In this document: positions 4,788-62,148 of the stretch, one piece after another
Position numbering within the stretch: the first letter of the stretch is position 1
Layout: each line of letters begins with the position of its first letter
Source: Blastocatellia bacterium
GTDB lineage: Bacteria > Acidobacteriota > Blastocatellia > UBA7656
Direction of reading: 5' to 3'
NCBI GenBank assembly: GCA_045807725.1
Contig: JBJMGV010000089.1
Location: 4,787-68,786, forward strand
DNA length: 64,000 nucleotides
Program-made: the position numbers and the translations under genes
Notes under the pieces: model-generated
What the model saw: the letters and a program-made list of their open reading frames with translations, nothing else
Databases searched by the model: none
What the model was told of the DNA's origin: nothing

Positions 4788-4885
4788 AGAGGCTAGAGGC
4801 TAGAGGCTAGAGGCTAGAGGCTGGCAGGAGAAAACCGCTGACTCGCTGTCTTCCCGCTAGTCTCTAGCCTCCAGTCTCCAGCCTC
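4788..4885. repeat. Tandem-repeat-armed hairpin H1, CTAG type: (GGCTAGAG)x4 arm / about 30 nt centre / complementary CTCTAGCC-type arm
   Basis: GGCTAGAG copies at 4791-4822. The opposite arm, 4856-4885, reads gctagtctctagcctccagtctccagcctc. Fills the whole gap between the jag stop (4886) and the mnmE start (4787). Confidence 0.9.
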
Positions 4886-5338
4886 TTACTTCGCCGGATA
4901 GATCGTTACCTTGCGATGGTCGCCGCTGCCCTGGCTTTCGCTGCGCACAGAGGCGTCAGTGGAGAGCGCCAGGTGGATGATGCGCCGCTCGCCCGGACTC
5001 ATTGGATCGAAGGTGAAGGGTGCGCGGGTCTGGCGGACGCGCTCGGCGGCTTTCTCGGCCATCAACTGCAACTCTTTTTCGCGCTGCGCGCGGTAGCTGC
5101 CCGAATCGAAGACGAGATGATGCTCTTCGCCGGTGACGTGCGCCAGCATGCGATTGCCGAGATGTTCGAGCGCGTCGAGCATCTCGGCGTTGTGGCTGAG
5201 CAGGATGGCGCGGTCGCCGCCGCGCACCTGCACGCGCACGGCTTCGCCGAGCGGCTCGACGCTGGCACGCAAGTCAAGGTCGCTCTGTTCGAGCACACGA
5301 TTGATAAAGTCCACGACGCTGTTGATGTCACCTTCCAT
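4886..5338 (-). CDS. jag: Jag/KhpB-like RNA-binding protein (KH + R3H domains)
   Basis: 150 aa. C-terminal GERRIIHLAL...R3H-like segment. Conserved position between yidC and mnmE. Confidence 0.8.
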   Translation of the reverse strand: MEGDINSVVDFINRVLEQSDLDLRASVEPLGEAVRVQVRGGDRAILLSHNAEMLDALEHLGNRMLAHVTGEEHHLVFDSGSYRAQREKELQLMAEKAAERVRQTRAPFTFDPMSPGERRIIHLALSTDASVRSESQGSGDHRKVTIYPAK

Positions 5339-5359
5339 CGTTCACATCCTCAATGCGGC

Positions 5360-7543: not shown

Positions 7544-7878
7544 TGCTTCCCTGCCCTTTCCAGGAAGGCGATGAAGTCGCCTTCAAGGTCGCCATAAGCC
7601 GCCTCGACCAAAGGCCGCTTCACGTTAAAGACTATATCAACTCCCGCAGGGACTAGCCATTTGTTTTTGCGGAAGGCCTCGCGTAACAACCGGCGCGCGC
7701 GGTTGCGTTCAACGGCGTTGCCGATCTTGCGCGTCGTCGTGATGCCGATGCGCGGTCGCTCGTTCAGACTGGGCAGAATGAACGCCGTGAAGAACCGCGC
7801 GTGCAGCTTGCGGCCTTGCTCGTAGACGCGGCGGAATTCGTCGCGTTTGAGAATGCGGTCTGACTTGGGAAACTTCAT
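7540..7878 (-). CDS. rnpA: RNase P protein component RnpA
   Basis: The ORF track starts at 7926, but those first 16 codons read through hairpin H2. The internal ATG at 7878 gives [22 protein letters not shown]..., 112 aa, a typical RnpA length and N-terminus. Confidence 0.85.
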
Positions 7879-7881
7879 CAG

Positions 7882-7960
7882 CAGTGGCCAGTGGGCAGCA
7901 GCCAGTGACCAGTAGTAAGCGAGCACCTACTGACCACTGACCACTGGCCATTGATCACTG
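7882..7960. repeat. Tandem-repeat-armed hairpin H2 (CCAGTG/GACCAGT-type units)
   Basis: Left arm cagtggccagtgggcagcagccagtgaccagtag (7882-7915). Right arm ctactgaccactgaccactggccattgatcactg (7927-7960), imperfectly complementary. Lies between the rpmH stop (7963) and the rnpA start (7878). Confidence 0.8.
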
Positions 7961-7962
7961 AT

Positions 7963-8109
7963 TTAGTAATGTGCAGGCGTCAGGCGCTTGCGCCCTTTGG
8001 CGCGGCGGCGCTTGAGGACAAGCTGGCCGCCCTTCGTGCTCATGCGGACGCGGAAGCCGTGCGTCTTGGCGCGGCGGCGATTGTTTGGTTGGAAAGTTCT
8101 CTTCGGCAT
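7963..8109 (-). CDS. rpmH: 50S ribosomal protein L34
   Basis: Below the ORF-track size cutoff. Own translation: [48 protein letters not shown] (48 aa), the canonical L34 sequence, upstream of rnpA. Confidence 0.93.
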
Positions 8110-8317: not shown

Positions 8318-8662
8318 ATGGACATCAAAGAACGAGTCGTTGACGGAGTGAGCGTGCTTGATCTGGCCGGCAAGATCGTGCTCGGCGAGGGCGATGGGCA
8401 GATTCGTGAGCGCATCAAAGACCTGCTCGCCGACGGCCAGCGCAAAATCCTGTTGAATCTCGGCGACATCACCTACATTGATTCGGCGGGCCTGGGCGCG
8501 CTCATCAGCAGCTATACCACGACCAGGCGCGAAGGCGGACAGTTGAAGCTCGTCAGCCTGACGAAGCGCATTCAAGACCTGCTGGCGATCACCAAATTGA
8601 TCACCGTCTTTGACACCTACGAGACTGAAGCCGAAGCCATTGATTCATTCTCGTCGAAGTAA
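8318..8662 (+). CDS. STAS-domain anti-sigma-factor antagonist (SpoIIAA/RsbV-like)
   Basis: 114 aa; LNLGDITYIDSAGLGALIS with the conserved phosphorylatable Ser context; STAS length. RBS aggagg at 8309-8314. Confidence 0.8.
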   Translation: MDIKERVVDGVSVLDLAGKIVLGEGDGQIRERIKDLLADGQRKILLNLGDITYIDSAGLGALISSYTTTRREGGQLKLVSLTKRIQDLLAITKLITVFDTYETEAEAIDSFSSK

Positions 8663-8673: not shown

Positions 8674-8769
8674 GAGCGAAGGGCGAAAAGGGAAAAGGCG
8701 AAAGGGAAAAGAAGCTGCTACGTTGGCCGCTGCTTTTCCCCTTTCGCCTTTTCGTTTTTCCTTCTCGCC
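8674..8769. repeat. Tandem-repeat-armed hairpin H3 (GGCGAAAAGGGAAAA-type units)
   Basis: Left arm gagcgaagggcgaaaagggaaaaggcgaaagggaaaag. Right arm cttttcccctttcgccttttcgtttttccttctcgcc. Lies between the convergent STAS gene (stop 8662) and TPR gene (stop 8776). Confidence 0.85.
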
Positions 8770-8775
8770 TTGTCC

Positions 8776-9885
8776 TCAGGGTTGTTGTGAGGCCAGCACT
8801 CGCACACGCTCGACGCTCGCCTTAATGGCCGGGTCATTGGTTGCCGCAAAGGCCCTCTCGTAAATTCGCAAAGCCTGCTGATACTGCTTGTCGCTCTCGT
8901 AGACGTATCCCAGCTCTGACAACGCCGCCACGGAATCGGGCAGTAACTGTAAAGTGATTTCGAGCGCCTCCATCGCTTTGCGCATCTGGCCGCTGCGCGA
9001 CAGCGCGATACCATACAAGAGCCACGCCTGCCCGTTATCCGTGTTCGCTCGTGCGATCTTCTCAAGCGGCGCGACAGCTTTGTCGAATTGCCGCGCCGCG
9101 AAATAAGCGCGGCCTAAAACGTTTGCCGTCTTTTCGTCGTCGCGCAATGCTCGCAACTTTTCGCCGACTTCCGCCGCTTCGAGCCACAGCGCATTGGCGT
9201 TGGTCTTGCGCGCTTTGCGAATCAGGCTCTCGGCCAGCAGATCCATCGCCGCCGCTTCTTCGGGGTTGGCCTTGACCGCTTCGCGCAGAGCCGTGATGGC
9301 GCGGTCGTCGTCTTCGCGCTTGAAGTAGATTGCGCCGAGATAATAGTAATTCGCGCCCGCCTCTTTCGATTTTTCCGCCGAGCCTGACTTGCCATTCGCC
9401 GCCGCGAACGCCGCCTCGGCTTCATCAAAACGTTCGAGTTGATAATAAGCTCGGCCCAACGCCGTGCGCGCCGTCGCGTCTACTTCACGCTTGGCTTTCG
9501 TGTTCAGCTCGATGTAATGCTTGAGCGGTTCGACGGCTTTGTCGTAACGCCCGGCGATGTAATGCGAGATGCCGATGGTGTACCACGCGCCGGCGATTTC
9601 AGCGCTCGCCGGTGATTGCACTTCCATCAGATCAATGGCGCGCGCCATCGGCGTCTCGACGCGGTCGTAATGTTTCAATTTGTATTCGCACAGGCCGATG
9701 TAGTACCACGCGCCCGCCGCGTCAGGCCGCTCTGCGATCAAGTCCTGAAACTCGGCGAGCGCCGCCGCGTAGTCGCCTTTGTTGTAGAGGGCAACGCTGC
9801 GCTCCCAGTCGGACGCTTGCGCGGTTGCGCTCATCAGCGCCATCAACAGCAGTGCGGCGCACCATTTGTTCAGGGTTGACTGCAT
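8776..9885 (-). CDS. Secreted TPR-repeat protein
   Basis: 369 aa; signal peptide MQSTLNKWCAALLLMALMSATAQA; repeated A..Y/W..G...Y..A TPR-like units throughout. Confidence 0.75.
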   Translation of the reverse strand: MQSTLNKWCAALLLMALMSATAQASDWERSVALYNKGDYAAALAEFQDLIAERPDAAGAWYYIGLCEYKLKHYDRVETPMARAIDLMEVQSPASAEIAGAWYTIGISHYIAGRYDKAVEPLKHYIELNTKAKREVDATARTALGRAYYQLERFDEAEAAFAAANGKSGSAEKSKEAGANYYYLGAIYFKREDDDRAITALREAVKANPEEAAAMDLLAESLIRKARKTNANALWLEAAEVGEKLRALRDDEKTANVLGRAYFAARQFDKAVAPLEKIARANTDNGQAWLLYGIALSRSGQMRKAMEALEITLQLLPDSVAALSELGYVYESDKQYQQALRIYERAFAATNDPAIKASVERVRVLASQQP

Positions 9886-11361: not shown

Positions 11362-11445
11362 GGCTTCGTGAAGTGAGATGAGCCTCTGCGCTTCATTGAT
11401 CATCGAAGTCGGCAGTTGATATTCGCGCATAGGACAAAGGCTGGC

Positions 11446-11480
11446 GACCTGCATCTGATGAGAGCAGGTCGCCAGCCTTT
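11446..11480 (+). terminator. Rho-independent terminator after the paralog pair
   Basis: aaaggctggcgacctgc-atctgatgaga-gcaggtcgccagccttt: a perfect 17-bp stem followed by atcgttt. Confidence 0.8.
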
Positions 11481-11812
11481 ATCGTTTGGCATCACATCTG
11501 AAGCGCGAGCAACCATCCGCCTATCCGCATTCGTTTCAGCAACGCAGTTGGAAATTCTTACACGCCCGGCCTGTAATCTTTACTTGTAAAATCTGCCTTG
11601 ATCGCATTGCCGGCTTTAATTTCGCCGACTTAGACGAATAATGAAATCGGCACGCTCGTTGCAAAAGCATCGGTGGGGCAGAGATACGGGTGATTAAACA
11701 TCATTTCCGGTCTCTATTTGCGGTTGCCGGGGTGAGGACGGCAACCACAATTGGCGATGCGGAGATTATCTCTGCATCGCCATTTATCTTTGAACCAGTG
11801 GGAGACGTGACT

Positions 11813-18088: not shown

Positions 18089-18101
18089 TTTGTAACAAAT
18101 A

Positions 18102-18830
18102 TTACTTTTTCTTCGCTTCCCACTTGCCGGTCATCTGGCCGGAGAAATCAAAGTCGCCGGAGATCTTGCCGTCTTTCACCGCCCCACTCATGGTAATCGA
18201 GCCTTGTGGCGTGTCGAGGCTAAAGCTCAGCTTATTGCCATCCCATTTGCCGTTGCTGATTGTGGCAGCGCCTTGATCGGATGAAGACGTGCCGGTGACT
18301 TTGTTACCTTCGAGCTTGAGCTTGAGAGTAAAAGGGATTGTCATGCCGCCAGCGTCAGCCGAGCCATCCCAGTCTCCCGAAATCGGGTCGCCTGCGGCGG
18401 CTGCCGGAGCGGGAGCAGACGAAGAAGCCGCCGGGGCTGTGCCGCCGGATTTCTTCAATTCGAGAGTGCCACCGGCTCCACCAAGCTCCCACTTGCCGAC
18501 GATCTTATCACCATTGAGCGTCGCCGTGACGATGCCTTCGTTGCCGCCGGCATCAAATTTGATCGTCACTTTACCGTCTGCGTAAGACCCGTCCGTGATA
18601 TTGGCCGGGCCTTGTGGTGTTTCAATCGTTCCAGAGAGCTTGCCGCTCGTATTTTTCAGATTCACGGTGAGCGGAATTTCGCCGAACGCCTCGCTCTTAG
18701 CGACGCCTTCGTACTTACCTGAGATGTCGGCCTTTTCGTCCAAAGCCAGTCTGTTAAACGGCGCGGCGAATGCGGCTGACGAGATCAACAGCGCAATCGC
18801 AAGCAGTGCAACGCTTCTTCGTAACTGCAT
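18102..18830 (-). CDS. Secreted protein with two homologous halves (unknown function)
   Basis: 242 aa; signal peptide MQLRRSVALLAIALLISSAAFA. Two similar modules (..GKLSGTIETPQGPANITDGSYADGKVTIKF.. and ..NKVTGTSSSDQGAATISNGKWDGNKLSFSL..) are separated by an Ala/Ser/Pro linker. Confidence 0.7.
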   Translation of the reverse strand: MQLRRSVALLAIALLISSAAFAAPFNRLALDEKADISGKYEGVAKSEAFGEIPLTVNLKNTSGKLSGTIETPQGPANITDGSYADGKVTIKFDAGGNEGIVTATLNGDKIVGKWELGGAGGTLELKKSGGTAPAASSSAPAPAAAAGDPISGDWDGSADAGGMTIPFTLKLKLEGNKVTGTSSSDQGAATISNGKWDGNKLSFSLDTPQGSITMSGAVKDGKISGDFDFSGQMTGKWEAKKK

Positions 18831-19088
18831 CTTTCAGTCTCCTAATGGTGGTTTTCAATTTTGAAATCAAGCCAATCTGCAACTTGAGAATGACCAATCT
18901 TCGAGGCCATGTATTTATAACGTAAAATGCGCGTGCATCAAAGCAATTTTATCGTGGTGAAGCCCCGGGGCAGGCTGATCTGCTAGGCAAGGGTTCATCG
19001 AGAATCGCTTGCGAGTCGATATGGAACGAGATTGTCCAAGGGAGGGTCGAAAGGTCGGCACATAAATATAAAAGTAACTAATATTATT

Positions 19089-19949
19089 TTACTGCGTACG
19101 TTGAATCAATAAATCAAATAATCTCGATAGGTCATCGCTTGAGGAAAACTTGATCTCAATAATGCCTCCCTCTTTGAGAAGTTTTATCCGTGCAGGGGCC
19201 GCCAGGCTTTTGCTCAATTTCTGCTCGGCGGCGGCAATATTGGGATCTCTGCGAACCGGGGGTTGGTTCTGTTGGGCGGAGCCATTCGGCTCGCTGACTT
19301 GAGGGTCTCGAACTAGCCGTTCGGTTTCACGGACGCTCAGCGTCTTTTCGATGATCTCGTGAGCAAATAGGAGTTGTTGATCGGCAGTTTCCAGTGACAA
19401 TAGTGCGCGAGCGTGCCCCATTGAAAGTTTCTCATCCTCAACCAACTGTTGAATCTCAGGCGGTAATTTAAGAAGACGGAGGGAATTAGTTACCGAGGAG
19501 CGATCTTTTCCTACTCTTCTTGCCACTTCTTCTTGTGAAAGGGAAAGCACATCAACCAGTCTTTTATAGGCAGTAGCTTCTTCGATTGGATTCAAATCCT
19601 CACGTTGGATATTCTCGATCAGCGAAATCTCCAAAACGTTTTCGTCGGTGATATCTCGCACGATGCAGGGAATTTTACGCAATCCTGCTATCTGTGCTGC
19701 TCGCCACCGACGTTCACCGGCAATGATCTGAAAGCGTTCTCCGTCTCTGCGTGCGACTATCGGCTGAATAACTCCATTCGTCTTTATCGATTCTGCTAAT
19801 TCATTTATTTTTTCTTCTTTGAAATGTTTGCGCGGCTGTGCTTCGGTCGGATAAAGCAGATCAATATCGATATCCATCAAATCAGATTCGCTTGTCTGCA
19901 TCTGCGTAAAGAGGGCACTAAGCCCCCTGCCCAGAGCCTTTCTTGACAT
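19089..19949 (-). CDS. parB: Chromosome partitioning protein ParB (Spo0J)
   Basis: 286 aa; MSRKALGRGLSALF.., QPR.HF, GERRWRAA and an HTH segment. AT-rich codon usage. Confidence 0.93.
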   Translation of the reverse strand: MSRKALGRGLSALFTQMQTSESDLMDIDIDLLYPTEAQPRKHFKEEKINELAESIKTNGVIQPIVARRDGERFQIIAGERRWRAAQIAGLRKIPCIVRDITDENVLEISLIENIQREDLNPIEEATAYKRLVDVLSLSQEEVARRVGKDRSSVTNSLRLLKLPPEIQQLVEDEKLSMGHARALLSLETADQQLLFAHEIIEKTLSVRETERLVRDPQVSEPNGSAQQNQPPVRRDPNIAAAEQKLSKSLAAPARIKLLKEGGIIEIKFSSSDDLSRLFDLLIQRTQ

Positions 19950-20700
19950 TATTTATAACCTCCTTGGCGAGTCTGAGATAGCTTTCAGCTCCCTTCGATT
20001 TAATATCGTAAAGGACAATCGGCTTGCCGTGGCTCGGAGCCTCAGCTAGCCTGACGTTGCGTGGAATGATCGTGCTAAAAACTTGCGACCCCAGAAAATC
20101 TCGCAAATCGGAGACTACTTGATTTGAGAGATTAGTGCGCTCATCGAACATTGTTAAAAGAAATCCCTCGATAGTGAGGCTTGGGTTGAGTGAACGTCGA
20201 ATTTTTACCAATGTATCCCACAACTCGGATACCCCCTCTAGAGCAAAGTACTCACATTGTATCGGAATCAGCACTGAATTTGCTGCGGCAAGCGCATTTA
20301 GCGTCAATAGGCCTAAGCTTGGCGGGCAGTCTATAAGAACATAATCATAGGCACCGACAATTGGCTCTAATAGTCTTTTTAGGCGAAATTCACGTTGATC
20401 TAGATCAACTAATTCAATCTCCGCGGCAACGAGGATTTTCTCTGATGGAACAATTTTGAGGGTTGGAAGTTCCGTCTTTAGAGCAATAGATTCAATCGGC
20501 TCGTTTAGAACGAGACTATGGTAAAAACTTCTATAGAATTTTCCTCTTTGACCTAAGCCGCTCGTGCTGTTGCCTTGAGGGTCTGCATCTATGACTAACA
20601 CCCGCATATCGGCAACAGATAAGCAGGCAGCAAGGTTGATCGTCGTCGTAGTCTTGCCGACACCTCCTTTTTGATTCGCAATCGCTATGATCCTCGCCAT
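19918..20700 (-). CDS. parA: Chromosome partitioning ATPase ParA (Soj)
   Basis: 260 aa; deviant Walker A NQKGGVGKTTT. 32-nt overlap with the parB start. Confidence 0.93.
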   Translation of the reverse strand: MARIIAIANQKGGVGKTTTTINLAACLSVADMRVLVIDADPQGNSTSGLGQRGKFYRSFYHSLVLNEPIESIALKTELPTLKIVPSEKILVAAEIELVDLDQREFRLKRLLEPIVGAYDYVLIDCPPSLGLLTLNALAAANSVLIPIQCEYFALEGVSELWDTLVKIRRSLNPSLTIEGFLLTMFDERTNLSNQVVSDLRDFLGSQVFSTIIPRNVRLAEAPSHGKPIVLYDIKSKGAESYLRLAKEVINNVKKGSGQGA

Positions 20701-20780
20701 TAGGTGCTAACATATCACAAATTGGCCCACGATCAACGAAAAATCTTGCGCAATTCCTGGAATAGACTTTAGTACGAATA

Positions 20781-20796
20781 TGTTTCACGTGAAACC
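20781..20796. promoter_or_regulatory. parS centromere-like site
   Basis: TGTTTCACGTGAAACc matches the widely conserved parS consensus TGTTNCACGTGAAACA at 15/16 positions; about 80 nt upstream of parA. Confidence 0.8.
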
Positions 20797-20837
20797 TGCA
20801 AATAGAGATTCAAGATGTGCTAGAGAAGAAAAGAGGA

Positions 20838-20853
20838 TGTTTCATGTGGAACG
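20838..20853. promoter_or_regulatory. Degenerate parS-like site that also contains a TGTGGAAC DnaA-box-like core
   Basis: TGTTTCATGTGGAACG matches parS at 13/16. TGTGGAAC recurs in the dnaA-dnaN intergenic box cluster. Confidence 0.4.
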
Positions 20854-21082
20854 CACGACATAAAGACCTAAAGCCAATCGCTGAGTATCTAGAAAATTTA
20901 CGTGTCATTCATCAGAGATATTCCCTACGATTCCGCAAGATGGATCAATTCATCCAAATATAGACAGGGAAGTTATCGGATGACCAAAACTCCATCATAA
21001 ACCACTGGCGCATCAATATAAGATCGTGCTATTTTTATCAACTTTGATGATTTTAGATTATTGCAAGCGAGCTTCTAGGTGA

Positions 21083-22609
<1,527 letters not shown>

Positions 22610-22699
22610 TTTTACTAACATAATTACACCGATGTTAGAAAATTACCCTTGAAAGGAAGACCGGCGGCTCAGGACTGAGTCGCCGGCGATATTAAATCT

Positions 22700-23116
22700 A
22701 TGCCAGACAGACTCCACCTTGAAGTAGTAATTCCTGAACGGAGAGTATTTGGAGCCGAAGTGGATCGGGTCGAAGTGCCGGGACTAGACGGGGAATTGGG
22801 TATTCTCCCTGGCCACACGGACTTAATCTCGCAACTGAAGCCAGCAGGTCTCTTGACTTATCATATCGGTGACGAAAAAGGCGAGATTGCAATTAGTGAT
22901 GGCTTTGTCGAGATCAGTCAAGATCGCGTCATCATCCTAGCGGACAGAGCGGAACGGCCTGAGGATATAAATTTGACGGAGGCGCTTAAACTTAAAGATC
23001 AGGCAGAGCACGAATTGCAACAGGCGCTCGCAGACCCGGACAGCGACATAATCCGCGCGAGCGTTGAACTCGAACGCGCCTCCATCATCTTGCAGCTTGC
23101 GGAAAGAGCTCGCTAA
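22700..23116 (+). CDS. atpC: F1 ATP synthase epsilon subunit
   Basis: 138 aa; LHLEVVIPERRVF...VPGLDGELGILPGH; immediately follows atpD. Confidence 0.9.
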   Translation: MPDRLHLEVVIPERRVFGAEVDRVEVPGLDGELGILPGHTDLISQLKPAGLLTYHIGDEKGEIAISDGFVEISQDRVIILADRAERPEDINLTEALKLKDQAEHELQQALADPDSDIIRASVELERASIILQLAERAR

Positions 23117-23367
23117 CACTCCATAAGATATTATAAAAAAGAGACTTAGCCTCTCTTAAGAGATAGGATACAGTCGCTTAAATTGAAAAATATTGGCCTT
23201 TTTTTCAGTACGGATTTGATTGAAAACCGCCGCTCTGTGTGATACTGTTTCCCAGCTTTCAAGCATGCACCTTCGCGGGCACTGGCGTGTTAAAGCATTA
23301 ATGAGTAGGCCTTCGTTGATGACGAGGGTATTGGCACAGGCAATCTTCAATCAGATCATTTTCAACT

Positions 23368-24741
23368 ATGCAAGCCGATTTACTTTCGTCTATTCTTTCT
23401 GCCATCTCGAAACGAGTTAATCACCAGAGCTTCAACACGTGGTTCAAGCCTATCTCACATGCGACAAGGGATGATTCAACAATCTACCTAAAAGTGCCGA
23501 ATGAGATATTCCGTGATTGGATCACTAACAACTACTTTGATGTGATTGAGGAATCCCTCCTCGAACTCAATCTAGACGGCTACACGCTCGACTTTCTCGT
23601 CGAAGAGCAAAAATCTCAGAATGGCAATGGTGAAAGGCTGACGCAGGCCACACGCACTGCCGCACATCCGGTAAAAGAGATGGTCAGCTATGGGATTGCT
23701 AAAGTCATAGACCTTGAGCCCATTGAGCTGCCTCTTAATCCTAAGTATACTTTTGAGACTTTTGTCGTCGGTTCTTGCAATCAGTTCGCCCATGCAGCAT
23801 CGCTAGCGGTCGTTGACATGCCGTCAAAAACCTACAATCCTCTGTATATTTACGGTGGGGTTGGACTTGGAAAAACTCACCTGATGCACGCAATCGGTCA
23901 AGCGATTAAAGTAAGAACTAACAATTTACGTTTGACTTATATTTCATCCGAAAAATTCATGAATGAGTTAATCAACGCGATCCGTTATGACAAAACAATC
24001 TCTTTTAGGGAAAAATATCGCAATATCGATGTCCTTTTAATGGATGACATCCAGTTCCTCGCAGGAAAAGAGAGAACCCAGGAAGAGTTCTTCCACACAT
24101 TCAACGCCCTTTATGACGCTCAGAAACAGATTGTCATTTCGAGCGATTGTCCGCCGCGCGAGATTCCGACACTCGAAGAGCGTCTCCATTCCCGATTTGA
24201 ATGGGGACTGATTGCCGATATCCAGCCCCCGGACCTCGAAACCAAAGTGGCGATATTGAAGCGCAAAGCCGAACTGGAGAAGATAGACTTGCCGGATAAT
24301 GTCGCCTTGTTCATCGCCAGCAAGATCAAATCGAATATACGAGAACTGGAAGGTTCGCTAGTCAGGCTGGTCGCTTATGCTTCGCTTAAGGGACTGCCTA
24401 TTGGCATAGAGTTAGCTCAAGATGTTCTGAGAAACATTATCGAAGAAGATACGGACGGCATTTCTATCGAGTTGATTCAAAAGAAAGTCGCCGGACATTA
24501 CGGATTAAAAGTAGGCGATTTGAAATCGAAGAACAACTCGCGCAATATTGCTGGACCTCGACAGGTGGCAATGTATTTGTGTAAGACCTTAACGAAATCG
24601 AGTCTCCCAGAGATAGGGCGCGAATTTGGCGGCAAACATCATACGACCGTGCTACACAGCATTAACAAAATTGCCGACCTTTATAACAAGGATGGAGTTT
24701 TCCACAAGCTTATCAACAGCTTTATTGCTGAAATAAAATAG
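23368..24741 (+). CDS. dnaA: Chromosomal replication initiator DnaA
   Basis: 457 aa; [18 protein letters not shown], Walker [11 protein letters not shown], and C-terminal domain IV ..[16 protein letters not shown]. Confidence 0.96.
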
Positions 24742-25009
24742 CTTAGCTAAGTTTTCCACATGACCGGGTTGTGGAGCCCTTGTGGAACCTGTTGAAAACT
24801 GTTGAAGTTAGCCAAAGGCTCCACAGGGCAGGCCGCTTTTGCACAGGTTTTGCACAGCCTTTTGCACAGCCTTATTTGATCTTTTATATTGTATTTTAAA
24901 CAATTTGCCATCAGGGTTCCACTTTTCCACAGGCACTACTACTACTACTAGATCATGACATGTAGTGAAAGATTAGAACTACTAGTAAAAGGCAGAATCG
25001 AGGTGAATA
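24742..25009. other. Chromosomal replication origin (oriC): DnaA-box cluster plus AT-rich unwinding element
   Basis: Box-like 9-mers: TTTTCCACA 24752 and 24923; TGTGGAGCC 24770; TGTGGAACC 24781; GGCTCCACA 24817; TTTTGCACA 24837, 24848 and 24860; GGTTCCAC 24915. The AT-rich stretch cttatttgatcttttatattgtattttaaacaatttg lies at 24871-24907. This is the classical dnaA-dnaN position. Confidence 0.8.
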
Positions 25010-26119: not shown

Positions 26120-26166
26120 TTCTTCGCCGATTTCGGGGCTGTGGCGCACCGAAAGGTTCCGAGCCT

Positions 26167-26877
26167 ATGCCGAACGTTTACGAGAAGCGCGTTCTCATCG
26201 TTGACGACAATAAATCCATTCGCACAACGGTCGTAGACTTCTTGCGCAGCAAAGGCTACGACGTGATTGAAGCCTCTGATGGCATTCAGGGATTAGACAA
26301 AGGACTCTCTACCGCGCCCAGCCTGATCATCCTTGACGTCGTGATGCCGGGCATAGATGGGTTCAAGCTCTGTCAGCTCTTCCGCGAAAAGGGCGTAACC
26401 GCGCCCATCATTATGCTGACAGAGAAGGCGACAATTGAAGATAAAGTCACGGGCTTCTCGTTTGGCGCGGACGATTATCTAGCCAAGCCCTTCAGTCCTC
26501 TTGAGCTTGAGTTGCGCATCCAGGCGTTGTTGCGCCGCACGGTGGGAGAAGCGCCGCCGCCGCCGGAAACCAAACTCCTCAAGCACGGCGACCTGGAGAT
26601 TGATCTGGACCGCCACACGGTGCGTGCAGGTGATCGGGACATCTCACTCACGCCCATCGAGTTCAATATCTTAAAGCTGCTGGCGTCAAATCCCGGCTAC
26701 GTCTATTCCCGCAACGATCTGTTGAGCGTGATCTGGGATACCGCCTACGAAGGCTACAAGCGCAACATCGATCCGCATGTTAATCGGCTCAGGACGAAGC
26801 TCGAAGAGAATCCCAAGCAGCCTAAATACATCCTCACCGTCTGGGGCATCGGCTACAAATTCAACGAGAACCTCTAG
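26167..26877 (+). CDS. OmpR/PhoB-family response regulator (no adjacent kinase)
   Basis: 236 aa; receiver domain (VLIVDDN..., LDVVMPGIDG, K at ..YLAKPF) plus a winged helix (LTPIEFNILKLL...TVWGIGYKF). Confidence 0.9.
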   Translation: MPNVYEKRVLIVDDNKSIRTTVVDFLRSKGYDVIEASDGIQGLDKGLSTAPSLIILDVVMPGIDGFKLCQLFREKGVTAPIIMLTEKATIEDKVTGFSFGADDYLAKPFSPLELELRIQALLRRTVGEAPPPPETKLLKHGDLEIDLDRHTVRAGDRDISLTPIEFNILKLLASNPGYVYSRNDLLSVIWDTAYEGYKRNIDPHVNRLRTKLEENPKQPKYILTVWGIGYKFNENL

Positions 26878-35856: not shown

Positions 35857-35902
35857 AACACGCAGACACGGAGGCACAGAGACACAGCGAACTCTTCGTG
35901 TT
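35857..35902. repeat. Solo tandem-octamer array resembling one arm of hairpin H8
   Basis: aacacg-cagacacggaggcacagagacacagcg-aactcttcgtgtt. Has a CACAGAG-type 8-nt periodicity, but only a 6-bp complementary clamp (aacacg/cgtgtt). Confidence 0.5.
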
Positions 35903-46540: not shown

Positions 46541-47086
46541 ATGCCAGTAGTGACCACACAGGCGAAGAAACGAACACTGGGCCAGATCGTCAGGCGATTG
46601 TTGCTGATCGATCTATTCAAAGGACTGGCGCTGACGTTTCGCTACAACGCGCGGGCGCTTTACGAGCCGCGCGACGGCGGCAATCCGTTGCAAGCCATCT
46701 ACACCGAGCAGTACCCGAAAGAGCCTGCGCGGGTGTCTGAGCGTTTTCGCGGCGCGCCGCGCTTGAACCTCGACCCGGAGAACGGCGCGTCGCTGTGCAT
46801 CGCCTGCGACCTTTGCGCGCAGGTGTGCCCGGTGGATTGCATCGAGGTCGGCTCGATTCGCCGCGAAGTCCGCGACGGTCAGAAGGTCAACAAGAAAAAA
46901 GTGCTGACGACATTCATCTACGACACGTCGCGCTGTATGTTTTGCAACCTCTGCGTCGAAGCCTGTCCGACCGACTGCCTTGAGCTGACGCAGAGCTTCG
47001 AGCTGGCGGTTTATCACCGCGCCGGTTTTCGCTGGGACCGCGAGATGCTTGAAAAGGGCATCAACTACGTGCGCTACACGAAGTAG
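46541..47086 (+). CDS. nuoI: NADH-quinone oxidoreductase subunit I (2x[4Fe-4S])
   Basis: 181 aa; CIACDLCAQVCP and CMFCNLCVEACP. Confidence 0.93.
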   Translation: MPVVTTQAKKRTLGQIVRRLLLIDLFKGLALTFRYNARALYEPRDGGNPLQAIYTEQYPKEPARVSERFRGAPRLNLDPENGASLCIACDLCAQVCPVDCIEVGSIRREVRDGQKVNKKKVLTTFIYDTSRCMFCNLCVEACPTDCLELTQSFELAVYHRAGFRWDREMLEKGINYVRYTK

Positions 47087-47177
47087 AGACTAGAGACTAG
47101 AGACTAGGGGCTAGCGGGGAACAGTCGCAATCAACGCCTTGTTCCTGCTAGTCCCTAGCCCCTAGTCTCCAGCCTCT
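47084..47177. repeat. Tandem-repeat-armed hairpin H4, CTAG type ((GACTAGAG)n / GGCTAG)
   Basis: The left arm tagagactagagactagagactaggggctagcgggg starts on the nuoI TAG stop. The right arm is cctgctagtccctagcccctagtctccagcctct. The nuoJ ATG is at 47189. Confidence 0.9.
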
Positions 47178-47188: not shown

Positions 47189-47785
47189 ATGCAATTACAC
47201 GGTTGGGAAGGCGTGCTGTTTTACGTGCTGGCGATTATGACGCTGTTTATGGCGGTCTTCGTGGTGACGGCGCGAGTTGCTGTTCATTCGGCGTTGTTCT
47301 TGATCGCCACGCTCGTCAACGTAGCGTTGTTGTTCATCCTGTTGCGCGCAGAGTTTGTCGCCGGCGTGCAGATACTGGTTTATGTCGGCGGCGTGATGGT
47401 GCTCTTCCTGTTCGTCATTATGCTGGTCGAGACACGCGCCGAAGAAGAGGCCCGCGTCGCGCTCTACACCAAACAAACATGGCCGGCGGTTATCGTCGCG
47501 CTGTTGCTGGCTGTGTCGTTCTACTTTGCGATGAACCCGGCGCAAGCGGCTTTTCGACAGCCGTCGGATCAGGCGAACGCGGTGGCGACGGCATCCGTAG
47601 ACGCGGGCGAACGCAGCGACGCCGGCGCAGGCTCTATCATCTCGACGGATACGGAGACGGTCGGCGACGCGCTCTACCGCAACGCCGCGCTGCCGTTTGA
47701 AATTGCTTCCGTGCTGCTGCTGGTGGCGATGGTCGGCGCGGTGCTGCTGGCGCGCGGGACCAAGCAAGAGAAGTATTACGAATAA
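47189..47785 (+). CDS. nuoJ: NADH-quinone oxidoreductase subunit J
   Basis: 198 aa; ..AEFVAGVQILVYVGGVMVLFLFVIML.. Confidence 0.9.
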   Translation: MQLHGWEGVLFYVLAIMTLFMAVFVVTARVAVHSALFLIATLVNVALLFILLRAEFVAGVQILVYVGGVMVLFLFVIMLVETRAEEEARVALYTKQTWPAVIVALLLAVSFYFAMNPAQAAFRQPSDQANAVATASVDAGERSDAGAGSIISTDTETVGDALYRNAALPFEIASVLLLVAMVGAVLLARGTKQEKYYE

Positions 47786-47884
47786 TGATGAGCGATGAAT
47801 GATGAATGATGAATGAAAGAGACAAGTCCCATTGCGGTGGGCGCAAGCGCCGGCAGTTCGTCATTCATCATTCATACTTCATTG
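47786..47884. repeat. Tandem-repeat-armed hairpin H5 ((ATGAATG)n units)
   Basis: tgatgagcgatgaatgatgaatgatgaatgaaag ... tcgtcattcatcattcatacttcattg. Starts 1 nt after the nuoJ TAA. Confidence 0.85.
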
Positions 47885-47903: not shown

Positions 47904-48329
47904 GTGAGTGGTTTTCTTCTGGGCGCGCTAACGCTTATCACCCCTCTGTTGCTGCAAGCGCAAACATCTGCGCTCAAGCGCTTCGAGCCGTCGCTCGTCA
48001 ACTTTCTTATGCTGAGCTTTCTGCTCTTCGTCGTCGGCGTCGCCGGTGTGCTGTCGCGCCGCAACATCATCATCATCTTTATGTCTATCGAGTTGATCTT
48101 GAATGCGGTCAACCTGAACCTGATCGCCTTCTCGCGCTACCTGTCGATGAATCAGGCGGCGCTGGCCAACGCCAAGCTCTTCGTCGAGCCGCTGACCGGG
48201 CCGGTCTTCACGATCTTCATCATCGTCGTGGCCGCTGCTGAAGCGGCGGTCGGCTTAGGCATCGTCATCGCTATGTTCCGCAACCGCGAAACCATCGCGA
48301 TTGACGAGATTGATTTACTGAAATGGTAA
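47904..48329 (+). CDS. nuoK: NADH-quinone oxidoreductase subunit K (with an extra N-terminal segment of about 35 aa)
   Basis: GGAGG at 47894-47898, then GTG 47904. Conserved core ..[19 protein letters not shown]...[20 protein letters not shown]. The track start at 47832 runs through hairpin H5. Confidence 0.8.
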
Positions 48330-48334
48330 AACGA

Positions 48335-48412
48335 AGTGATGAGTGATGAGTTGGAAGTGATGAGTTAAAATGCGGCTCATCACTCATCACTCATCACTTA
48401 TCACTTATCACT
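48335..48412. repeat. Tandem-repeat-armed hairpin H6 ((GTGATGA)n units)
   Basis: agtgatgagtgatgagttggaagtgatgagtt-aaaatgcgg-ctcatcactcatcactcatcacttatcacttatcact. Ends 5 nt before the nuoL ATG. Confidence 0.9.
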
Positions 48413-50820: not shown

Positions 50821-50921
50821 GCTGCGGTTTCGCCGAGCGGGCGCTACAGACTGCTGGAATGCGTCGTCGGCGAGCGTGCCTGAACGGGCAATGGATAGTT
50901 TGAAACAGGAGACGCTCTCGT

Positions 50922-54448: not shown

Positions 54449-54492
54449 GCCGCCGTGATTTGCGCGATGAGCGATCACGGCGGCGCTTTTGT
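54449..54492 (+). terminator. Canonical Rho-independent terminator after nuoN
   Basis: gccgccgtgat-(14 nt)-atcacggcggc: a perfect 11-bp stem followed by gcttttgttg. Confidence 0.75.
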
Positions 54493-54532
54493 TGCTATTG
54501 CAAATCGCGCGCTTCTGTTGCTCAATAGCGAT

Positions 54533-54769
54533 ATGCCTACGAATGATGACAACGACGATGGCGGCATCAGTTGGCGCGCAGCGACGGCGACGGTCGGGTT
54601 GGCGCTGGCGATTCCTTCGATGCTCTTCGTGCCGGCGCTGGTCGGCTATTGGATAGACAGCAAGTACGGCACGTCGCCGCTGTGGCTCATCGTCGGCCTC
54701 GTCATCGGATTGGCCGGCACGGCCTTCGATGTCTACCGCCTGCTCAAGCGCCTCGGACAGCTCAAGTAG
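54533..54769 (+). CDS. AtpZ/AtpI-family small membrane protein (putative F0F1-ATPase accessory protein)
   Basis: SWRAATATVGLALAIPSMLFVPALVGYWIDSKYGTSPLWLIVGLVIGLAGTAFDVYRLL fits the two-TM G-Y-W-(L/I)-D...G...P...G...YR pattern I associate with Pfam ATPase_gene1. I chose the start at 54533 because the upstream part of the track ORF overlaps the nuoN terminator. Confidence 0.6.
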   Translation: MPTNDDNDDGGISWRAATATVGLALAIPSMLFVPALVGYWIDSKYGTSPLWLIVGLVIGLAGTAFDVYRLLKRLGQLK

Positions 54770-54861
54770 AGGCTAGGGACTAGGGGCTAGGGACTAGAGA
54801 AAGCCAGGAGCGTTGATGACTTCCGTTTCTTGCCAGCCCCTAGCCCCTAGCCTCTAGTCCC
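54767..54861. repeat. Tandem-repeat-armed hairpin H7, CTAG type (GGCTAGGG/GACTAGGG units)
   Basis: tagaggctagggactaggggctagggactagag ... ccagcccctagcccctagcctctagtccc. Starts on the TAG stop of the AtpZ-like gene. Confidence 0.9.
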
Positions 54862-54901
54862 TTGTATAGTTTCCTTTTCGTCAATCATCACAGGGGAGCG
54901 C

Positions 54902-55672
54902 ATGCTAGATTTTGCTATTCGAGTGGCGCAGGACGCGGGGCGGCTGTTGCGCGACCGCGTCGGCACGACCCTTGACATCGGTCTCAAAGGAGCCATCAAC
55001 ATTGTTACTGACGTTGATCTGGCCAGCGAACGTTTGATTCGTGAGGCCATCGCTTCGCACTATCCGCGCCATCAGGTCTTAGGCGAAGAGGGCGGGCTGG
55101 ACGATCACGGCTCGGATTATCGCTGGGTAGTCGATCCGCTCGATGGCACGACCAACTTCGCGCACGGCTTCCCGATGTTTGCCGTCTCCATCGCGCTCGA
55201 ATATAAGAGCGAGACGATTGTAGGCGTCGTCTACGACCCGATGCGCGACGAGTTGTTTGCCGCCGAAAAGGGCGCGGGCGCGACGCTCAACCGCCGCCCG
55301 CTTCGCGTCTCGCAGACGGCGGAGTTGTCGAAGAGCCTGTTGTCCACCGGCTTCCCTTACGACATCCGCACGTCGAGCCTGAACAACCTGGATCACTGGC
55401 GCAACTTTGCGATGAACGCGCAGGCGTTGCGCCGCATCGGCTCGGCGGCGCTTGATCTGTGTTATGTTGCGGCGGGCCGCTTCGACGGATTCTGGGAGCT
55501 GAACCTCGGCGCGTGGGACAGCGCCGCCGGCGCGTTGATCGTTGAAGAGGCTGGCGGGCAAGTGACCGATTTTTCCGGCGGCCCGTTTTCAAAGTACGAG
55601 CCGGAGATTTTAGCCAGCAACGGGCTGATTCATCCGCAGATGATGAACATATTAGCAATGCCGAAAGGCTGA
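54902..55672 (+). CDS. Inositol monophosphatase family protein (SuhB-like)
   Basis: 256 aa; GEEGG, WVVDPLDGTTNFAHG, AAGRFDGFWE. Confidence 0.88.
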   Translation: MLDFAIRVAQDAGRLLRDRVGTTLDIGLKGAINIVTDVDLASERLIREAIASHYPRHQVLGEEGGLDDHGSDYRWVVDPLDGTTNFAHGFPMFAVSIALEYKSETIVGVVYDPMRDELFAAEKGAGATLNRRPLRVSQTAELSKSLLSTGFPYDIRTSSLNNLDHWRNFAMNAQALRRIGSAALDLCYVAAGRFDGFWELNLGAWDSAAGALIVEEAGGQVTDFSGGPFSKYEPEILASNGLIHPQMMNILAMPKG

Positions 55673-55683
55673 ACGGTGATTGG

Positions 55684-55749
55684 CCACAGAGGCACAAAGA
55701 CACAGAGGAAAATAATCTAAAAGCTCTGTGTCTCTGTGCCTCTGTGGCA
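55684..55749. repeat. Tandem-repeat-armed hairpin H8 (CACAGAG-type octamers)
   Basis: gccacagaggcacaaagacacagag-gaaaataatctaaaag-ctctgtgtctctgtgcctctgtggc: 24/25 complementary. Lies between the IMPase stop (55672) and the thrB ATG (55761). Confidence 0.92.
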
Positions 55750-55760
55750 ATTCTGGGCGC

Positions 55761-59256: not shown

Positions 59257-59259
59257 AAA

Positions 59260-59292: not shown

Positions 59293-59541
59293 GCCCTTTT
59301 CTGGTTTGCGAAAAGGGGCCGAAATAGGGTAAAATTAAGCTTGTAGAAAAAGGCGAAATTGATCCCGCACGCCTCCTTTGCGGCCCACTCAACACGGCAG
59401 CAGGAATGCCGAGCCGAGCGCTCGCTTCGGCCCGTGTTGTGCAGTAGGAGCACGTGGTGGCTGGCCGAGCGGCGGCAGCGAGCCGCCGGGCCAAGAGACC
59501 CCTTAATCATCCGAAGCAGCATTTGACGAAAGAGATAAACC

Positions 59542-62007
59542 ATGGCTGAAGCAGCACAGAAGATACCGATCAATATCGAAGAAGAGATGCGGCGTAGTTA
59601 CCTTGACTATGCCATGAGCGTCATTATTGGACGCGCGCTCCCGGACGCGCGCGATGGCTTGAAGCCCGTGCACCGGCGCATCCTCTACGCCATGCATGAA
59701 ATGGGACTCACCCCAAACAAGCCGTACAAGAAATCTGCCACGGTGGTTGGCGACGTGTTAGGCAAATATCATCCGCACGGCGACTCGGCGGTCTATGACG
59801 CGATGGTGCGTATGGCGCAGGACTTTTCGCTGCGTTACCCGCTCGTCAAAGGGCAGGGCAATTTCGGCTCGGTGGACGGCGACGCGGCGGCGGCCTATCG
59901 CTACACCGAAGCGCGGCTGACGCACATCGCCACAGAGATGCTCGCCGACATCGACAAAGAGACGGTGGACTTCGTGCCGAACTATGACGAGTCGCGCGTC
60001 GAGCCGACCGTCTTGCCAACGCGCTTTCCGAATCTTTTAGTCAACGGTTCGGGCGGCATCGCCGTCGGTATGGCGACCAACATTCCGCCGCACAATTTGA
60101 CCGAAGTCGTCGAAGCGGCGATCTTCCTGATTCAGAATCCCAACGCGCGGCTTTCGACGTTGATGGAGAGAGTGCCCGGCCCGGACTTCCCGACAGGCGG
60201 CTTCATCTACGGGCGCGAAGGCATACGGCAAGCGTACGAGACCGGGCGCGGCACGATCATTATGCGCGCCAAAGCTTCGATAGATCGCGCCGGTCGTAGC
60301 GCCGAGCGTATGGCCATCGTCATCACAGAGATTCCTTACCAAGTCAACAAGGCCAAGTTGATCGAGCGCATCGCCGAGTTGGTTAACGATAAGAAGATCG
60401 AAGGCATCTCGGACCTGCGCGACGAATCGGACCGCGAAGGCATGCGCATTATGATCGAGCTGAAGCGCGATGCTATTCCCGACATCGTGCTCAACAACCT
60501 CTACAAGCTGACGCCGATGCAGCAGACCTTCGGCATGATTAACCTGGCCATCATCAACGGTCAGCCGCGCGAGTTGAAACTGGTTGACACGCTCAACATC
60601 TTCATCGAGCACCGCCGCGAGGTCGTCATCCGCCGCACGCGCTTTGAATTGAAGAAGGCCGAAGCGCGCGCGCACATCCTGGAAGGCTTGAAGAGGGCGC
60701 TCGATCATCTCGACGAAGTCATCTCGATCATCCGCAAGGCGAAGGCGACGGTCGAGGCGCGCGAGGCGTTGATGCTGCGCTTCAAGTTCTCCGAATTGCA
60801 GGCGCGGGCGATTCTCGAAATGCAGTTGCAGAAGCTGACGGGCCTCGAACGTCAGAAGCTGATCGACGAGTACAAGGGGATCATCCAGCTCATCGCCGAG
60901 CTTCAGGAGATTCTCGCCAACGAGTCTGTGCTGCGTAACCTCATCATCAAAGAACTGCGCGAAGTGCAGCGCGAGTACGGCGACGAGCGGCGCACGCAGA
61001 TCATCGAAGCCGGCGCAGAGCTGACGCTCGAAGACTTGATCGCCGACGAAGATATGGCCATCACGGTGACGCATTCGGGCTACATCAAGCGCACGCCGGT
61101 TTCGGTCTACCGCGCGCAACGGCGCGGCGGCACGGGCCGCAAGGGCGCTTCGCTCAAGACCGAGGACGTAGTGGATCACCTGTTCGTCGCCTCGACGCAC
61201 AGCTACGTGATGATCTTCACCAACAACGGCCAGGTCTATAAGCTGAAGGTGCATGAGATACCTGACGCGGCGGCGGCAGGCAAGGGCAAAGCCATCGTCA
61301 ATCTCTTGAATATGCCCAAAGGCGAGAAGGTCGCCGGCATTATTCCCGTGCGCGACTTTGAAGAAGGCCGCTATGTCGTGATGGCGACGCGCAAAGGCAC
61401 GATCAAGAAGACGGCGCTATCGGATTTCGCCAACATCCGACCGAGCGGCATCAACGCGATGGGCATCGATGACGGCGACGAGTTGATCGCGGTCGAACTG
61501 ACCGACGGCAAGAAGAAGATCTTCCTGGCGACGCACGAAGGCATGGCCATCTGCTTTGAAGAGTCGGGCGTGCGCTCGATGGGCCGCCCGGCTTACGGCG
61601 TGCGCGGCATCACGCTCGACAAAGATGATTATGTCATCAGCGTCGCCGCCGTGCCCGATGACATCGAGATGTTATCGATTTCGGAAAACGGTTTCGGCAA
61701 GCGCACGAAGCTCGAAGAGTACCGCTTCCAGTCGCGCGGCGGCAAAGGCGTCATCAACATGAAGACGAGCGACCGCAATGGTCTGGTCGTCGCCGTGCTG
61801 CCGGTCAACGACGAGAGTCAGTTGATGATGATCACCCACCAGGGCAAGATGATCCGCATTGATGCCAGGACCATTCGCGTGTCGGGTCGCTCAACGCAAG
61901 GCGTCAAGCTGATCGATACGTCGGATGGCGATATGGTTTCGTCCGCCTCGTTGATCGAACGTCAGCAGGACGCGACTGAGAACGGCAACGGTGTGGTGGT
62001 CGCTTAA
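59542..62007 (+). CDS. gyrA: DNA gyrase subunit A
   Basis: 821 aa; ..[32 protein letters not shown].., active-site region [10 protein letters not shown], and C-terminal beta-pinwheel repeats. Confidence 0.97.
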
Positions 62008-62148
62008 CGTGACGCGGCGACACGGGGACGCGGGGAAAGACGACGCGGCAACGCGGCGACACAGCGACGCGGCGAGGGAAGGACAGAAGAGAGTCGAACC
62101 GCTCCTCTTTCCCCGCGTCGCCGTGTCGCCGCGTCGCCGCGTCGCCCC
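62008..62148. repeat. Tandem-repeat-armed hairpin H9 (GACGCGGC/GACACGGG octamers)
   Basis: About 8 octamer copies on the left (cgtgacgcggcgacacggggacgcggggaaag...). The right arm is ctttccccgcgtcgccgtgtcgccgcgtcgccgcgtcgcccc. Starts 1 nt after the gyrA TAA and ends 10 nt before the next ATG. Confidence 0.88.

Follow-up and report, generated by a model that had tools for sequence, protein, structure and literature searches.

Inverted tandem heptamer repeats between stop and start codons in Blastocatellia

Which kind of element accounts for nine hairpins, each with arms made of short tandem repeats, that are found in a chromosomal stretch of a soil-dwelling Blastocatellia bacterium (Acidobacteriota), near the replication origin? 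The stretch, referred to below as the window, comprises 64,000 nt (assembly GCA_045807725.1, contig JBJMGV010000089.1, positions 4,787 to 68,786). Its initial annotation had described the nine loci (H1 to H9, Table 1) as sharing one architecture, in which tandem copies of a unit of 7 to 8 nt form one arm and are followed by a centre and by tandem copies of the complementary unit. Our results showed that inverted heptamer-repeat elements of this type, called zippers here, are widespread in the clade and nearly absent from the outgroups. Their copy number and unit sequence change fast, and junctions gain, lose or replace their occupants between close strains. Unit variants present in one arm are mirrored in the other, with a complementarity that is strand-symmetric. 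The explanation that we favour, and regard as rather probable, is that the nine loci are clade-specific inverted tandem heptamer repeats, i.e. palindromic microsatellites that are upkept at the DNA level and are tolerated since stop and start codons remain next to each other once the RNA is folded.

Architecture, spread and placement of the elements

The window was analysed for repeat periods with TRF, for minimum free energies (MFE) with RNAfold and for gene assignment with Pfam, and was further submitted to Rfam, a terminator scan and an inverted-repeat search. An earlier and stricter detector, which paired tandem arrays, recovered one of the nine loci and was superseded by a multi-register detector of complementary antidiagonals recurring at a fixed offset; the latter is conservative, degenerate copies being missed. 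Applied to the window, it returned exactly H1 to H9, with two to nine registers per locus spaced by 7 or 8 nt, apart from H8, which displayed a single register and yet was 8-periodic in both arms. No multi-register hairpin occurred in eight dinucleotide-shuffled windows used as controls. Nearly all of the 25 longest inverted repeats of the window corresponded to these loci, and all nine folded into strong stems on either strand (MFE of -38 to -102 kcal/mol). Sequence reading, TRF, inverted-repeat search and RNAfold agreed with the initial annotation as to the location of the nine loci, their common architecture and their ability to pair in several registers.

The unit lengths and the supposed diversity of units required some correction. 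Periods of 7 were found on both sides of H1 to H7, and the length of 8 nt stood for H8 and H9 only. Eight-letter strings such as GGCTAGAG, previously listed as units, represent the heptamer plus one base (in that case GGCTAGA, a rotation of TAGAGGC). Units had also been said to differ at each locus, a view that is no longer tenable: CTAGRGR was common to H1, H4 and H7, a single base distinguished the unit TGATGAA of H5 from TGATGAG in H6, and the 8-mer of H8 was encountered again in a lone array, the sole array located in a promoter-type gap (Table 1). Unit families recurred both within and between genomes.

The elements had been set apart from CRISPR, classical REP/BIME elements and canonical terminators, a distinction borne out by unit size, unique centres and the terminator scan. 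The units of H1 to H9 are contiguous and only 7-8 nt long, and a single unique centre separates arms of opposite orientation, which does not correspond to CRISPR. Neither did we find the one conserved imperfect palindrome of 20-40 nt that defines REP, BIME and REPIN elements, since units differed and centres were unrelated. As for MITEs (miniature transposable elements with inverted repeats), the copies displayed no common internal sequence, and comparison of filled and empty junctions revealed no target site duplication. Rfam gave no match across the whole window at the gathering threshold. Integron attC core sites (RYYYAAC / GTTRRRY) were absent from both strands of the nine loci, whose flanking genes are core housekeeping genes.

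NuoJ served as the anchor for collecting relatives, both in species-representative genomes and in metagenomes, the related loci being metagenome-assembled genomes of Blastocatellia/Acidobacteriota; the best NuoJ matches of the window within the Blastocatellia clade displayed 89% and 96% identity. Element densities and context counts are biased because all these loci surround the nuo operon, and their gene calls are crude. The window and the loci L001 to L049 contained 97 detected elements. Once the metagenome loci were added, 170 distinct elements were recorded in 1.36 Mb of clade sequence, with a period of 7 in 159 of them (94%) and of 8 in nine. The outgroup set (L050 to L064, about 290 kb from distant Acidobacteriota, Actinomycetota and Bacillus) provided one borderline call (L062, period 5, single register). 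Among arrays with three or more copies, at least 86% were paired into hairpins; lone direct arrays amounted to at most 33 out of 241.

The nine elements in the 64 kb of the window, i.e. a density of 1.4 per 10 kb, are all intergenic. Weight had been given to their absence from a low-GC block at 18.8-25.1 kb, but this absence is uninformative because such a density predicts about one element in 6 kb. The block corresponds to the partition and origin region of the chromosome, with parA, parB, dnaA and dnaN as well as ATP-synthase beta/epsilon-like genes (Table 1), and is not an obvious foreign island. Four of the window's nine DnaA-box-like matches were grouped there, together with a tandemly repeated 12-mer, which suggests from the sequence that oriC is located where dnaA ends and in the gap separating it from dnaN.

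Eight of the nine elements lie between co-oriented genes, mostly within obvious operons as judged from the Pfam-assigned flanks, and H4, H5 and H6 occupy successive nuo junctions (nuoI/nuoJ, nuoJ/nuoK and nuoK/nuoL). On the transcribed strand, the elements start close to a stop codon, as already noted in the initial annotation, and fill the intergenic gap (distances in Table 1); H4, H5 and H7 start on the stop codon itself. In H1, H2 and H6, the next start codon is situated 0-5 nt from the stem base and displays no Shine-Dalgarno (SD) sequence. H3 is bordered at its far end by the stop codon of a convergent gene. The GTG start of nuoK, downstream of H5, was kept in relatives together with its GGAGG; the predicted NuoK protein has 141 aa, of which about 33 extend the N-terminus ahead of the Pfam domain Oxidored_q2.

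A comparable placement was observed in the related loci. With the crude gene calls, 79 out of 92 elements started between -3 and +15 nt from the upstream stop (median +3). In this nuo-biased sample, 86 elements lay between co-oriented and three between convergent genes, and none was in a genuine divergent gap. At nuo junctions, the median distances were 2 nt from stop to hairpin and 8 nt from hairpin to start, 87% of the gap being hairpin; a spacer of about 10 nt would therefore be left if the stem were removed. Only about 10% of the I-J, J-K, K-L, L-M and M-N junctions of the clade were 35 nt long or less. In most outgroups, nuo junctions were 1-16 nt long or the genes overlapped. Zippers were scored at 117 of the 374 distinct junctions (about a third) and other hairpins at approximately one in seven, and many of the remaining clade nuo junctions are visibly degenerate zippers. 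At these junctions, zippers had an MFE per nt of -0.48 and other hairpins one of -0.46, compared with -0.33 in the remaining cases. In the window, the nuoL-nuoM gap of 101 nt is structured (-37 kcal/mol) yet non-periodic; zippers or other hairpins are present at this junction in some relatives.

In the terminator scan of the window, none of the nine elements was terminator-like, and the total number of terminator-like sites did not exceed the shuffle expectation. The 12 nt past the stems contained 1 to 7 T and no clean T tract, in agreement with the previous remark that most copies lack one. H3 was the only copy with a terminator-compatible appearance, since the A-runs of its 5' arm give rise to T-runs in the 3' arm on both strands. 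Two ordinary hairpins, one with a stem of 17 bp and the other with one of about 14 bp (Table 1), illustrate the canonical terminator type of this genome. The latter is followed by the T-rich tail TTTATCTTTG and was terminator-like by scan; the former is followed by TTTATCGTTTG and was not called.

Turnover and symmetry of the arms

Orthologous junctions carried wholly different heptamers according to the genome (GGTGTTG, TTTTAGA, GATTGCG, TCATTTG, CCGTAGT or AGATGTC), with arms that were always matched. In the comparison of orthologous gaps, as proposed in the initial annotation, the arms stayed complementary while the unit changed, and copy number varied between strains as well as between arms (4 and 6 units in L081, 3 and 7 in L083). 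In L066, of which NuoJ is 96% identical to that of the window, the I-J unit changed from GRGRCTA to GGGGCCR in both arms. Presence was opposed to clean absence between L003 and L070 (96% nuoJ nucleotide identity) and between L015 and L082 (97.6%), the cleanly empty junctions being J-K in L070 and L135 and I-J in L015. Loci L026 and L107 differed by a deletion of 56 nt between direct repeats. Within a cluster at 96-98% identity, a single junction contained either of two zipper families or a REPIN-like palindrome doublet.

Non-periodic palindromes were thus encountered at junctions of the same operon. In L008, L021, L080 and L083, the nuoJ-nuoK zipper junction was taken by the REPIN-like inverted doublet GTCCGACAAACTTCAGTTTGTCGGAC, which is absent from the window, and a different long non-periodic palindrome was located at the nuoK-nuoL junction of L081.

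The relationship between the two arms was closer than that between adjacent units. Identity reached 0.894 across arms and 0.847 between neighbouring units of one arm; the cross-arm value exceeded the other in 113 elements, the opposite being the case in 36 (p=4e-14); therefore, the arms mirror the order of unit variants, beyond merely using one unit. Units were also shared between junctions, since 13.9% of the element pairs located at different junctions of the same locus were within one mismatch, against 0.9% for random heptamers, and two unit variants were reused at three junctions in L038. None of 86 centres matched a non-orthologous site in the 1.36 Mb, the 11 hits obtained being at orthologous sites. 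Centres of one family bore no relation to each other, not even when the window and L003 were compared at orthologous junctions.

The elements displayed a marked polarity, with G exceeding C in the 5' arm of 146 elements and the reverse in 14 (p=7e-29, n=160). This G-rich-first polarity is intrinsic to the element because a palindrome reads alike on both strands; in non-periodic hairpins of the same loci, it was only 57:30. On the nuo sense strand, the C-rich 3' arm was the longer one in 51 elements and the shorter one in 18 (p=2.6e-6), and arrays without partner arm were mostly of the C-rich type. The 5' arm contained 9.1 ATG, GTG or TTG triplets per 100 nt and the 3' arm 0.8, a scarcity from which we infer selection against false starts just before the true start. 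No comparable strand effect was observed for pairing: the mismatches of 76 elements of known sense comprised 64 G:T and 74 A:C (p=0.44), and the more stable fold was that of the sense strand in 36 elements and of the antisense strand in 40. Two properties that might have unified the families were considered and rejected. Stop codons in all three frames of the 5' arm were found in 49 out of 145 cases and were entirely missing in 46, and most unit families lack the G-tracts that G-quadruplexes (G4) require.

Two further repeats were noted in the window. One is a perfect 23-bp inverted repeat, non-periodic and located between convergent open reading frames (ORFs); the other consists of GGC/GCG-rich tandem repeats of 27-48 nt that probably encode a glycine/arginine-rich low-complexity protein segment (Table 1).

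Table 1. Zipper elements and other features of the window, with distances from the upstream stop codon and to the next start codon.
Feature	Coordinates	Strand	Unit or sequence	Context	Stop to element (nt)	Stem to next start (nt)
H1	4788-4886	-	TAGAGGC (7 nt); arms 4788-4829 and 4852-4886; 5 registers	jag (R3H) stop 4886-4888, mnmE start 4785-4787, both on minus strand	0	0
H2	7882-7961	-	CAGTGRC (7 nt)	rpmH stop 7963-7965, rnpA start 7876-7878	3	3
H3	8682-8775	.	GAAAAGG / 14-mer GGCGAAAAGGGAAAA	convergent: STAS gene (+, stop 8660-8662), TPR protein gene (-, stop 8776-8778)	12-20	
H4	47084-47177	+	TAGAGAC/TAGGGGC	begins on nuoI stop TAG; followed by SD GGAGG and nuoJ ATG 47189	on stop	11
H5	47784-47882	+	TGATGAA	overlaps nuoJ stop TAA 47783-47785; followed by SD GGAGG and nuoK GTG 47904	on stop	21
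H6	48334-48412	+	GTGATGA; 5 registers	between nuoK stop and nuoL ATG 48418; no SD	4	5
H7	54767-54862	+	TAGGGRC/TAGAGGC	begins on stop TAG of AtpI-like gene 54455-54769; inositol monophosphatase gene downstream	on stop	39
H8	55678-55753	+	CACAGAGR (8 nt)	inositol monophosphatase stop 55670-55672, GHMP-kinase ATG 55761	6-11	12
H9	62011-62146	+	GACGCGGC/GACACGGG (8 nt); 9 registers	gyrA stop 62005-62007, TPR protein ATG 62159	3	12
Lone 8-mer array	35858-35887	.	ACACGGAG GCACAGAG ACACAG; unit family of H8 and L034:3194; no clear complementary arm	divergent gap, histidine kinase (-) / thioesterase (+)		
Low-GC block	18100-26200			partition and origin region		
parB	19089-19949	-		low-GC block		
parA	19918-20700	-		low-GC block		
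ATP-synthase beta/epsilon-like genes	21092-23116	+		low-GC block		
dnaA	23368-24741	+		low-GC block		
DnaA-box-like cluster	24698-24931			low-GC block		
12-mer repeat	24836-24873		CTTTTGCACAGC x3.2	low-GC block		
dnaN	25010-26119	+		low-GC block		
Ordinary hairpin, stem 17 bp	11436-11480					
Ordinary hairpin, stem about 14 bp	11752-11782					
Inverted repeat, 23 bp	31963-32059		GGCGAGCGGCCTGTCCTTGCGCG; arms 51 nt apart	between ORFs 31446-31907 (+) and 32064-33728 (-)		
GGC/GCG-rich repeats	39211-39335			within ORF 38965-39345		
nuoK	47904-48329					
nuoL-nuoM gap	50821-50921					

Formation of the elements and competing explanations

According to the explanation that we favour, arrays would lengthen and shorten through replication slippage, which would account for the copy-number changes of individual arms and for the repeat-bounded deletion. 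One arm would be copied from the other, or corrected against it, by fold-back or template switching in the palindrome. Mirrored variant order and strand-symmetric complementarity point to such copying at the DNA level, not to RNA selection through G-U intermediates. Ectopic conversion may then spread unit variants among nearby arrays.

The arrays would be transcribed within operon mRNAs and would persist only where the insert forms a self-contained stem-loop, leaving an effective stop-start spacer of about 10 nt. Tolerance by folding is suggested by the confinement of the elements to the stop-start spacer and by a residual spacer of about 10 nt, in line with outgroup junction lengths. A ribosome terminating upstream, its footprint reaching into the first stem turns, may open the stem base and thereby give access to the adjacent start, a form of translational coupling. 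The G-poor 3' arm would present almost no false start codons ahead of the real one, and stems of 25-50 bp would stop 3' exonucleases, protect 3' ends and serve as RNase III substrates. Terminator action is not expected, with the possible exception of H3.

Several observations weigh against this explanation, of which every functional step is deduced from sequence. The missing G-U bias is contrary to an RNA-level selection maintaining the pairing and weakens the idea of tolerance through folding, unless DNA-level homogenisation outruns RNA selection. Slippage combined with templating explains neither the fixed period of 7 nor the polarity of about 10:1 (about 2:1 in ordinary hairpins of the same loci). 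It is silent on the presence of one unit family at several junctions despite unique centres, and leaves the cassette-like replacement of occupants between close strains unaccounted for. Moreover, the supposed precursors, i.e. lone direct arrays, are rare, and the sampling is skewed to the nuo operon.

Among the alternatives, the one that survives best, although we hold it for possible rather than likely, is that zippers are selected RNA elements. They would stabilise mRNA between cistrons, provide sites for RNase III processing or serve as obligatory translational-coupling clamps setting subunit stoichiometry (e.g. in nuo), with no constraint on the sequence provided that a long stem persists. 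About 90% of the clade nuo junctions indeed hold a structured insert, with the similar MFE per nt given above for zippers and other hairpins, and where the zipper is missing another palindrome is often in the same place. The precise placement relative to stop and start codons and the co-variation of arms point in the same direction, as do an RNase III that acts on the heptamer-repeat hairpin of Haemophilus influenzae (PMC12721329) and the stability and coupling roles proposed for the hairpins of cyanobacterial short tandemly repeated repetitive (STRR) sequences (PMC2670836). Yet, the sense strand displays neither an excess of G-U over A-C nor a stability advantage, and outgroups function with junctions of 1-16 nt. 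In addition, close relatives can have a cleanly empty junction (J-K in L070 and L135, I-J in L015), and replacement at 96-98% identity is faster than would be expected of a tuned regulatory element.

A second and unlikely alternative is that zippers are non-autonomous mobile elements, the families of each genome being inserted between stop and start by a trans-acting enzyme, REPIN/RAYT-like or IS200/IS605-like, that would recognise a folded single strand. The sharing of unit families within loci beyond random expectation, the two identical variants across three junctions of L038 and the swap of different zipper families or a REPIN-like doublet at one junction, like cassettes, are consistent with mobility, and the niche is that of REP elements. 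The centres are nevertheless unique and do not recur at non-orthologous sites (0/86), no terminal inverted repeats other than the arms were seen, filled and empty sites differ by no target site duplication, and copy number varies between arms and strains, as slippage predicts. No transposase was linked to the elements in these nuo-centred loci, which are not complete genomes. A MITE-style copy-and-paste mode was rejected on the basis of centres that never recur at non-orthologous sites and are unrelated within a family.

Somewhat more doubtful still is the possibility that zippers are built and re-targeted by a dedicated system, either a telomerase- or retron-like enzyme adding a genome-specific 7-nt unit from an internal template, or a structure-specific recombinase seeding arrays at stop-start junctions. 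A stem that slides between registers and has C-rich 3' units in surplus would then constitute a heritable, copy-number-tunable rheostat of translational coupling that sets subunit ratios (e.g. in nuo). If true, this would account for what slippage and templating do not, namely the fixed period, the 10:1 polarity, the shared families with unique centres and the cassette-like turnover.

We consider it very unlikely that the elements act as DNA, be it as protein-binding iterons or as G4 or cruciform formers with an effect on supercoiling, replication or nucleoid structure. Complementarity is strand-symmetric, and some G-rich units contain G3-4 tracts (GGGATGA, GGGTTCA, GGGGCTA), as do Xanthomonas units shown to form G4 (PMC4692102). 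Tandem hepta- and octanucleotide repeat sites of Geobacter were read by their authors as binding sites of global regulators, and the four classes of putative regulator sites, of which some consist of such repeats, mostly occur in pairs (PMC2700814). However, many families are devoid of G-tracts (TGATGAA, GTGATGA, ATTGCGG, CAGTGGC, CACAGAGR), dozens of unrelated units would not be tolerable to one binding protein, and the tight anchoring to stop and start codons together with the sense-specific difference in arm length implicates transcript or translation.

Finally, unusual intrinsic terminators without U tract are highly improbable despite very stable stems directly past stop codons, the T-runs of H3 between convergent genes and the observation that, in Xanthomonas, transcript starts or ends coincide with putative G4-forming repeats more frequently than with control repeats (PMC4692102), because none of the nine elements was terminator-like or had a clean T tract, and termination at the three nuo junctions, at rpmH-rnpA or at jag-mnmE would abolish essential downstream expression.

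Relation to known repeats

The idea that the elements fit no known class is not supported, since the cyanobacterial STRR repeats (PMC2670836) and the GGGNATC 'tandemly inverted repeats' (PMC4692102) are close precedents. STRR are 7-bp repeats reported to form hairpins between hupS and hupL, for which a role in transcript stability or translational coupling was proposed (PMC2670836). Zippers resemble them by their tandem 7-nt units, intergenic location, high number of copies and hairpins between co-transcribed genes. According to what Mazel et al. reportedly described in 1990, the units of STRR1, STRR2 and STRR3 are CCCCAGT, TTGGTCA and CAACAGT. TTGGTCA-like units were encountered in L039 and L040, but most units of the clade differ from these three and belong to many more families. 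The host is also different, being an acidobacterium and not a heterocystous or filamentous cyanobacterium, and the elements are systematically located at stop-start junctions of core operons. A further similarity concerns the ATTGCGA repeats of Nostoc (PMC2408588; cf. csR4 and the AATTGCG array of L065), since ATTGCGR zippers were present in this study. In contrast to the present arrays, of which at least 86% are paired, only lone direct heptamer arrays and no zipper were found in the first 50 kb of the Nostoc plasmid pCC7120alpha.

The second precedent, described by Rehm et al. in 2015, consists of GGGNATC heptamers of Xanthomonas and Nostoc. These simple sequence repeats (SSRs) of about 4 units are over-represented between co-oriented ORFs and under-represented between divergent ones; their G-rich strand is the sense strand immediately past the stop and the antisense strand immediately ahead of the following ORF, and they form 70-75 convergent pairs per genome with stem-loop potential (PMC4692102). 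Zippers share their architecture, co-oriented gaps, inverted pairing and G-rich-first polarity (146 against 14 here). The major difference is that Xanthomonas possesses one G3-tract family, studied as G4 former, whereas the clade contains dozens of families, most of which are unable to form G4: no G3 tract is present in the units of H2, H5, H6 and H8, nor in the families ATTGCGG, ATGCGTG and AGTCCTG. Arm co-variation, strain turnover and an operon with about 90% of its junctions occupied were observed here, whereas that study (PMC4692102) describes none of them.

Other systems are more distant. Like REP, BIME and REPIN elements, for which mRNA-stabilising roles were proposed, zippers are genome-specific families of intergenic palindromes past stop codons and inside operons; unlike them, they are tandem arrays without shared core that undergo slippage-type copy change. 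In the 5' untranslated region of Haemophilus influenzae hmw, the transcribed heptamer SSR (ATCTTTC)n makes up one side of a long RNA hairpin that RNase III cleaves, and changes in repeat number need the hairpin, transcription and RNase III (PMC12721329). This is however a single locus in which one repetitive arm pairs with a G-rich region, and it is involved in phase variation of one adhesin. The TAACTGA repeats of Beggiatoaceae and cyanobacteria (PMC4679880) are also intergenic tandem heptamers at fixed short distances from start codons; those of Beggiatoaceae are nearly always direct, a single one of 170 sets being inverted. Yet, these repeats (PMC4679880) and the Geobacter metallireducens sites (PMC2700814) each have one conserved unit and were read as regulator or translation sites.

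The architecture is therefore known from cyanobacteria and Xanthomonas and is apparently new in Acidobacteriota, for which the literature searched contained no description of such elements. New aspects are the unrelated unit families mostly unable to form G4, the near-exclusive pairing, the junction saturation in an essential operon, the arm co-variation and the strain-level turnover. Inverted heptamer microsatellites have been noted for decades in cyanobacteria and Xanthomonas without a mechanism, and the present clade offers a denser and more diverse natural experiment, with dozens of families, filled and empty alleles and differing occupants among strains 2-4% apart. It makes it possible to test what fixes the period at 7 and places the G-rich arm first, whether pairing stems from DNA templating or RNA selection, and whether hairpins of 100 nt between translationally coupled genes are cost-free or not. 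In Acidobacteriota genomes, the elements will mislead terminator predictors, gene-start callers and short-read assemblers; they could also act as strain-typing markers.

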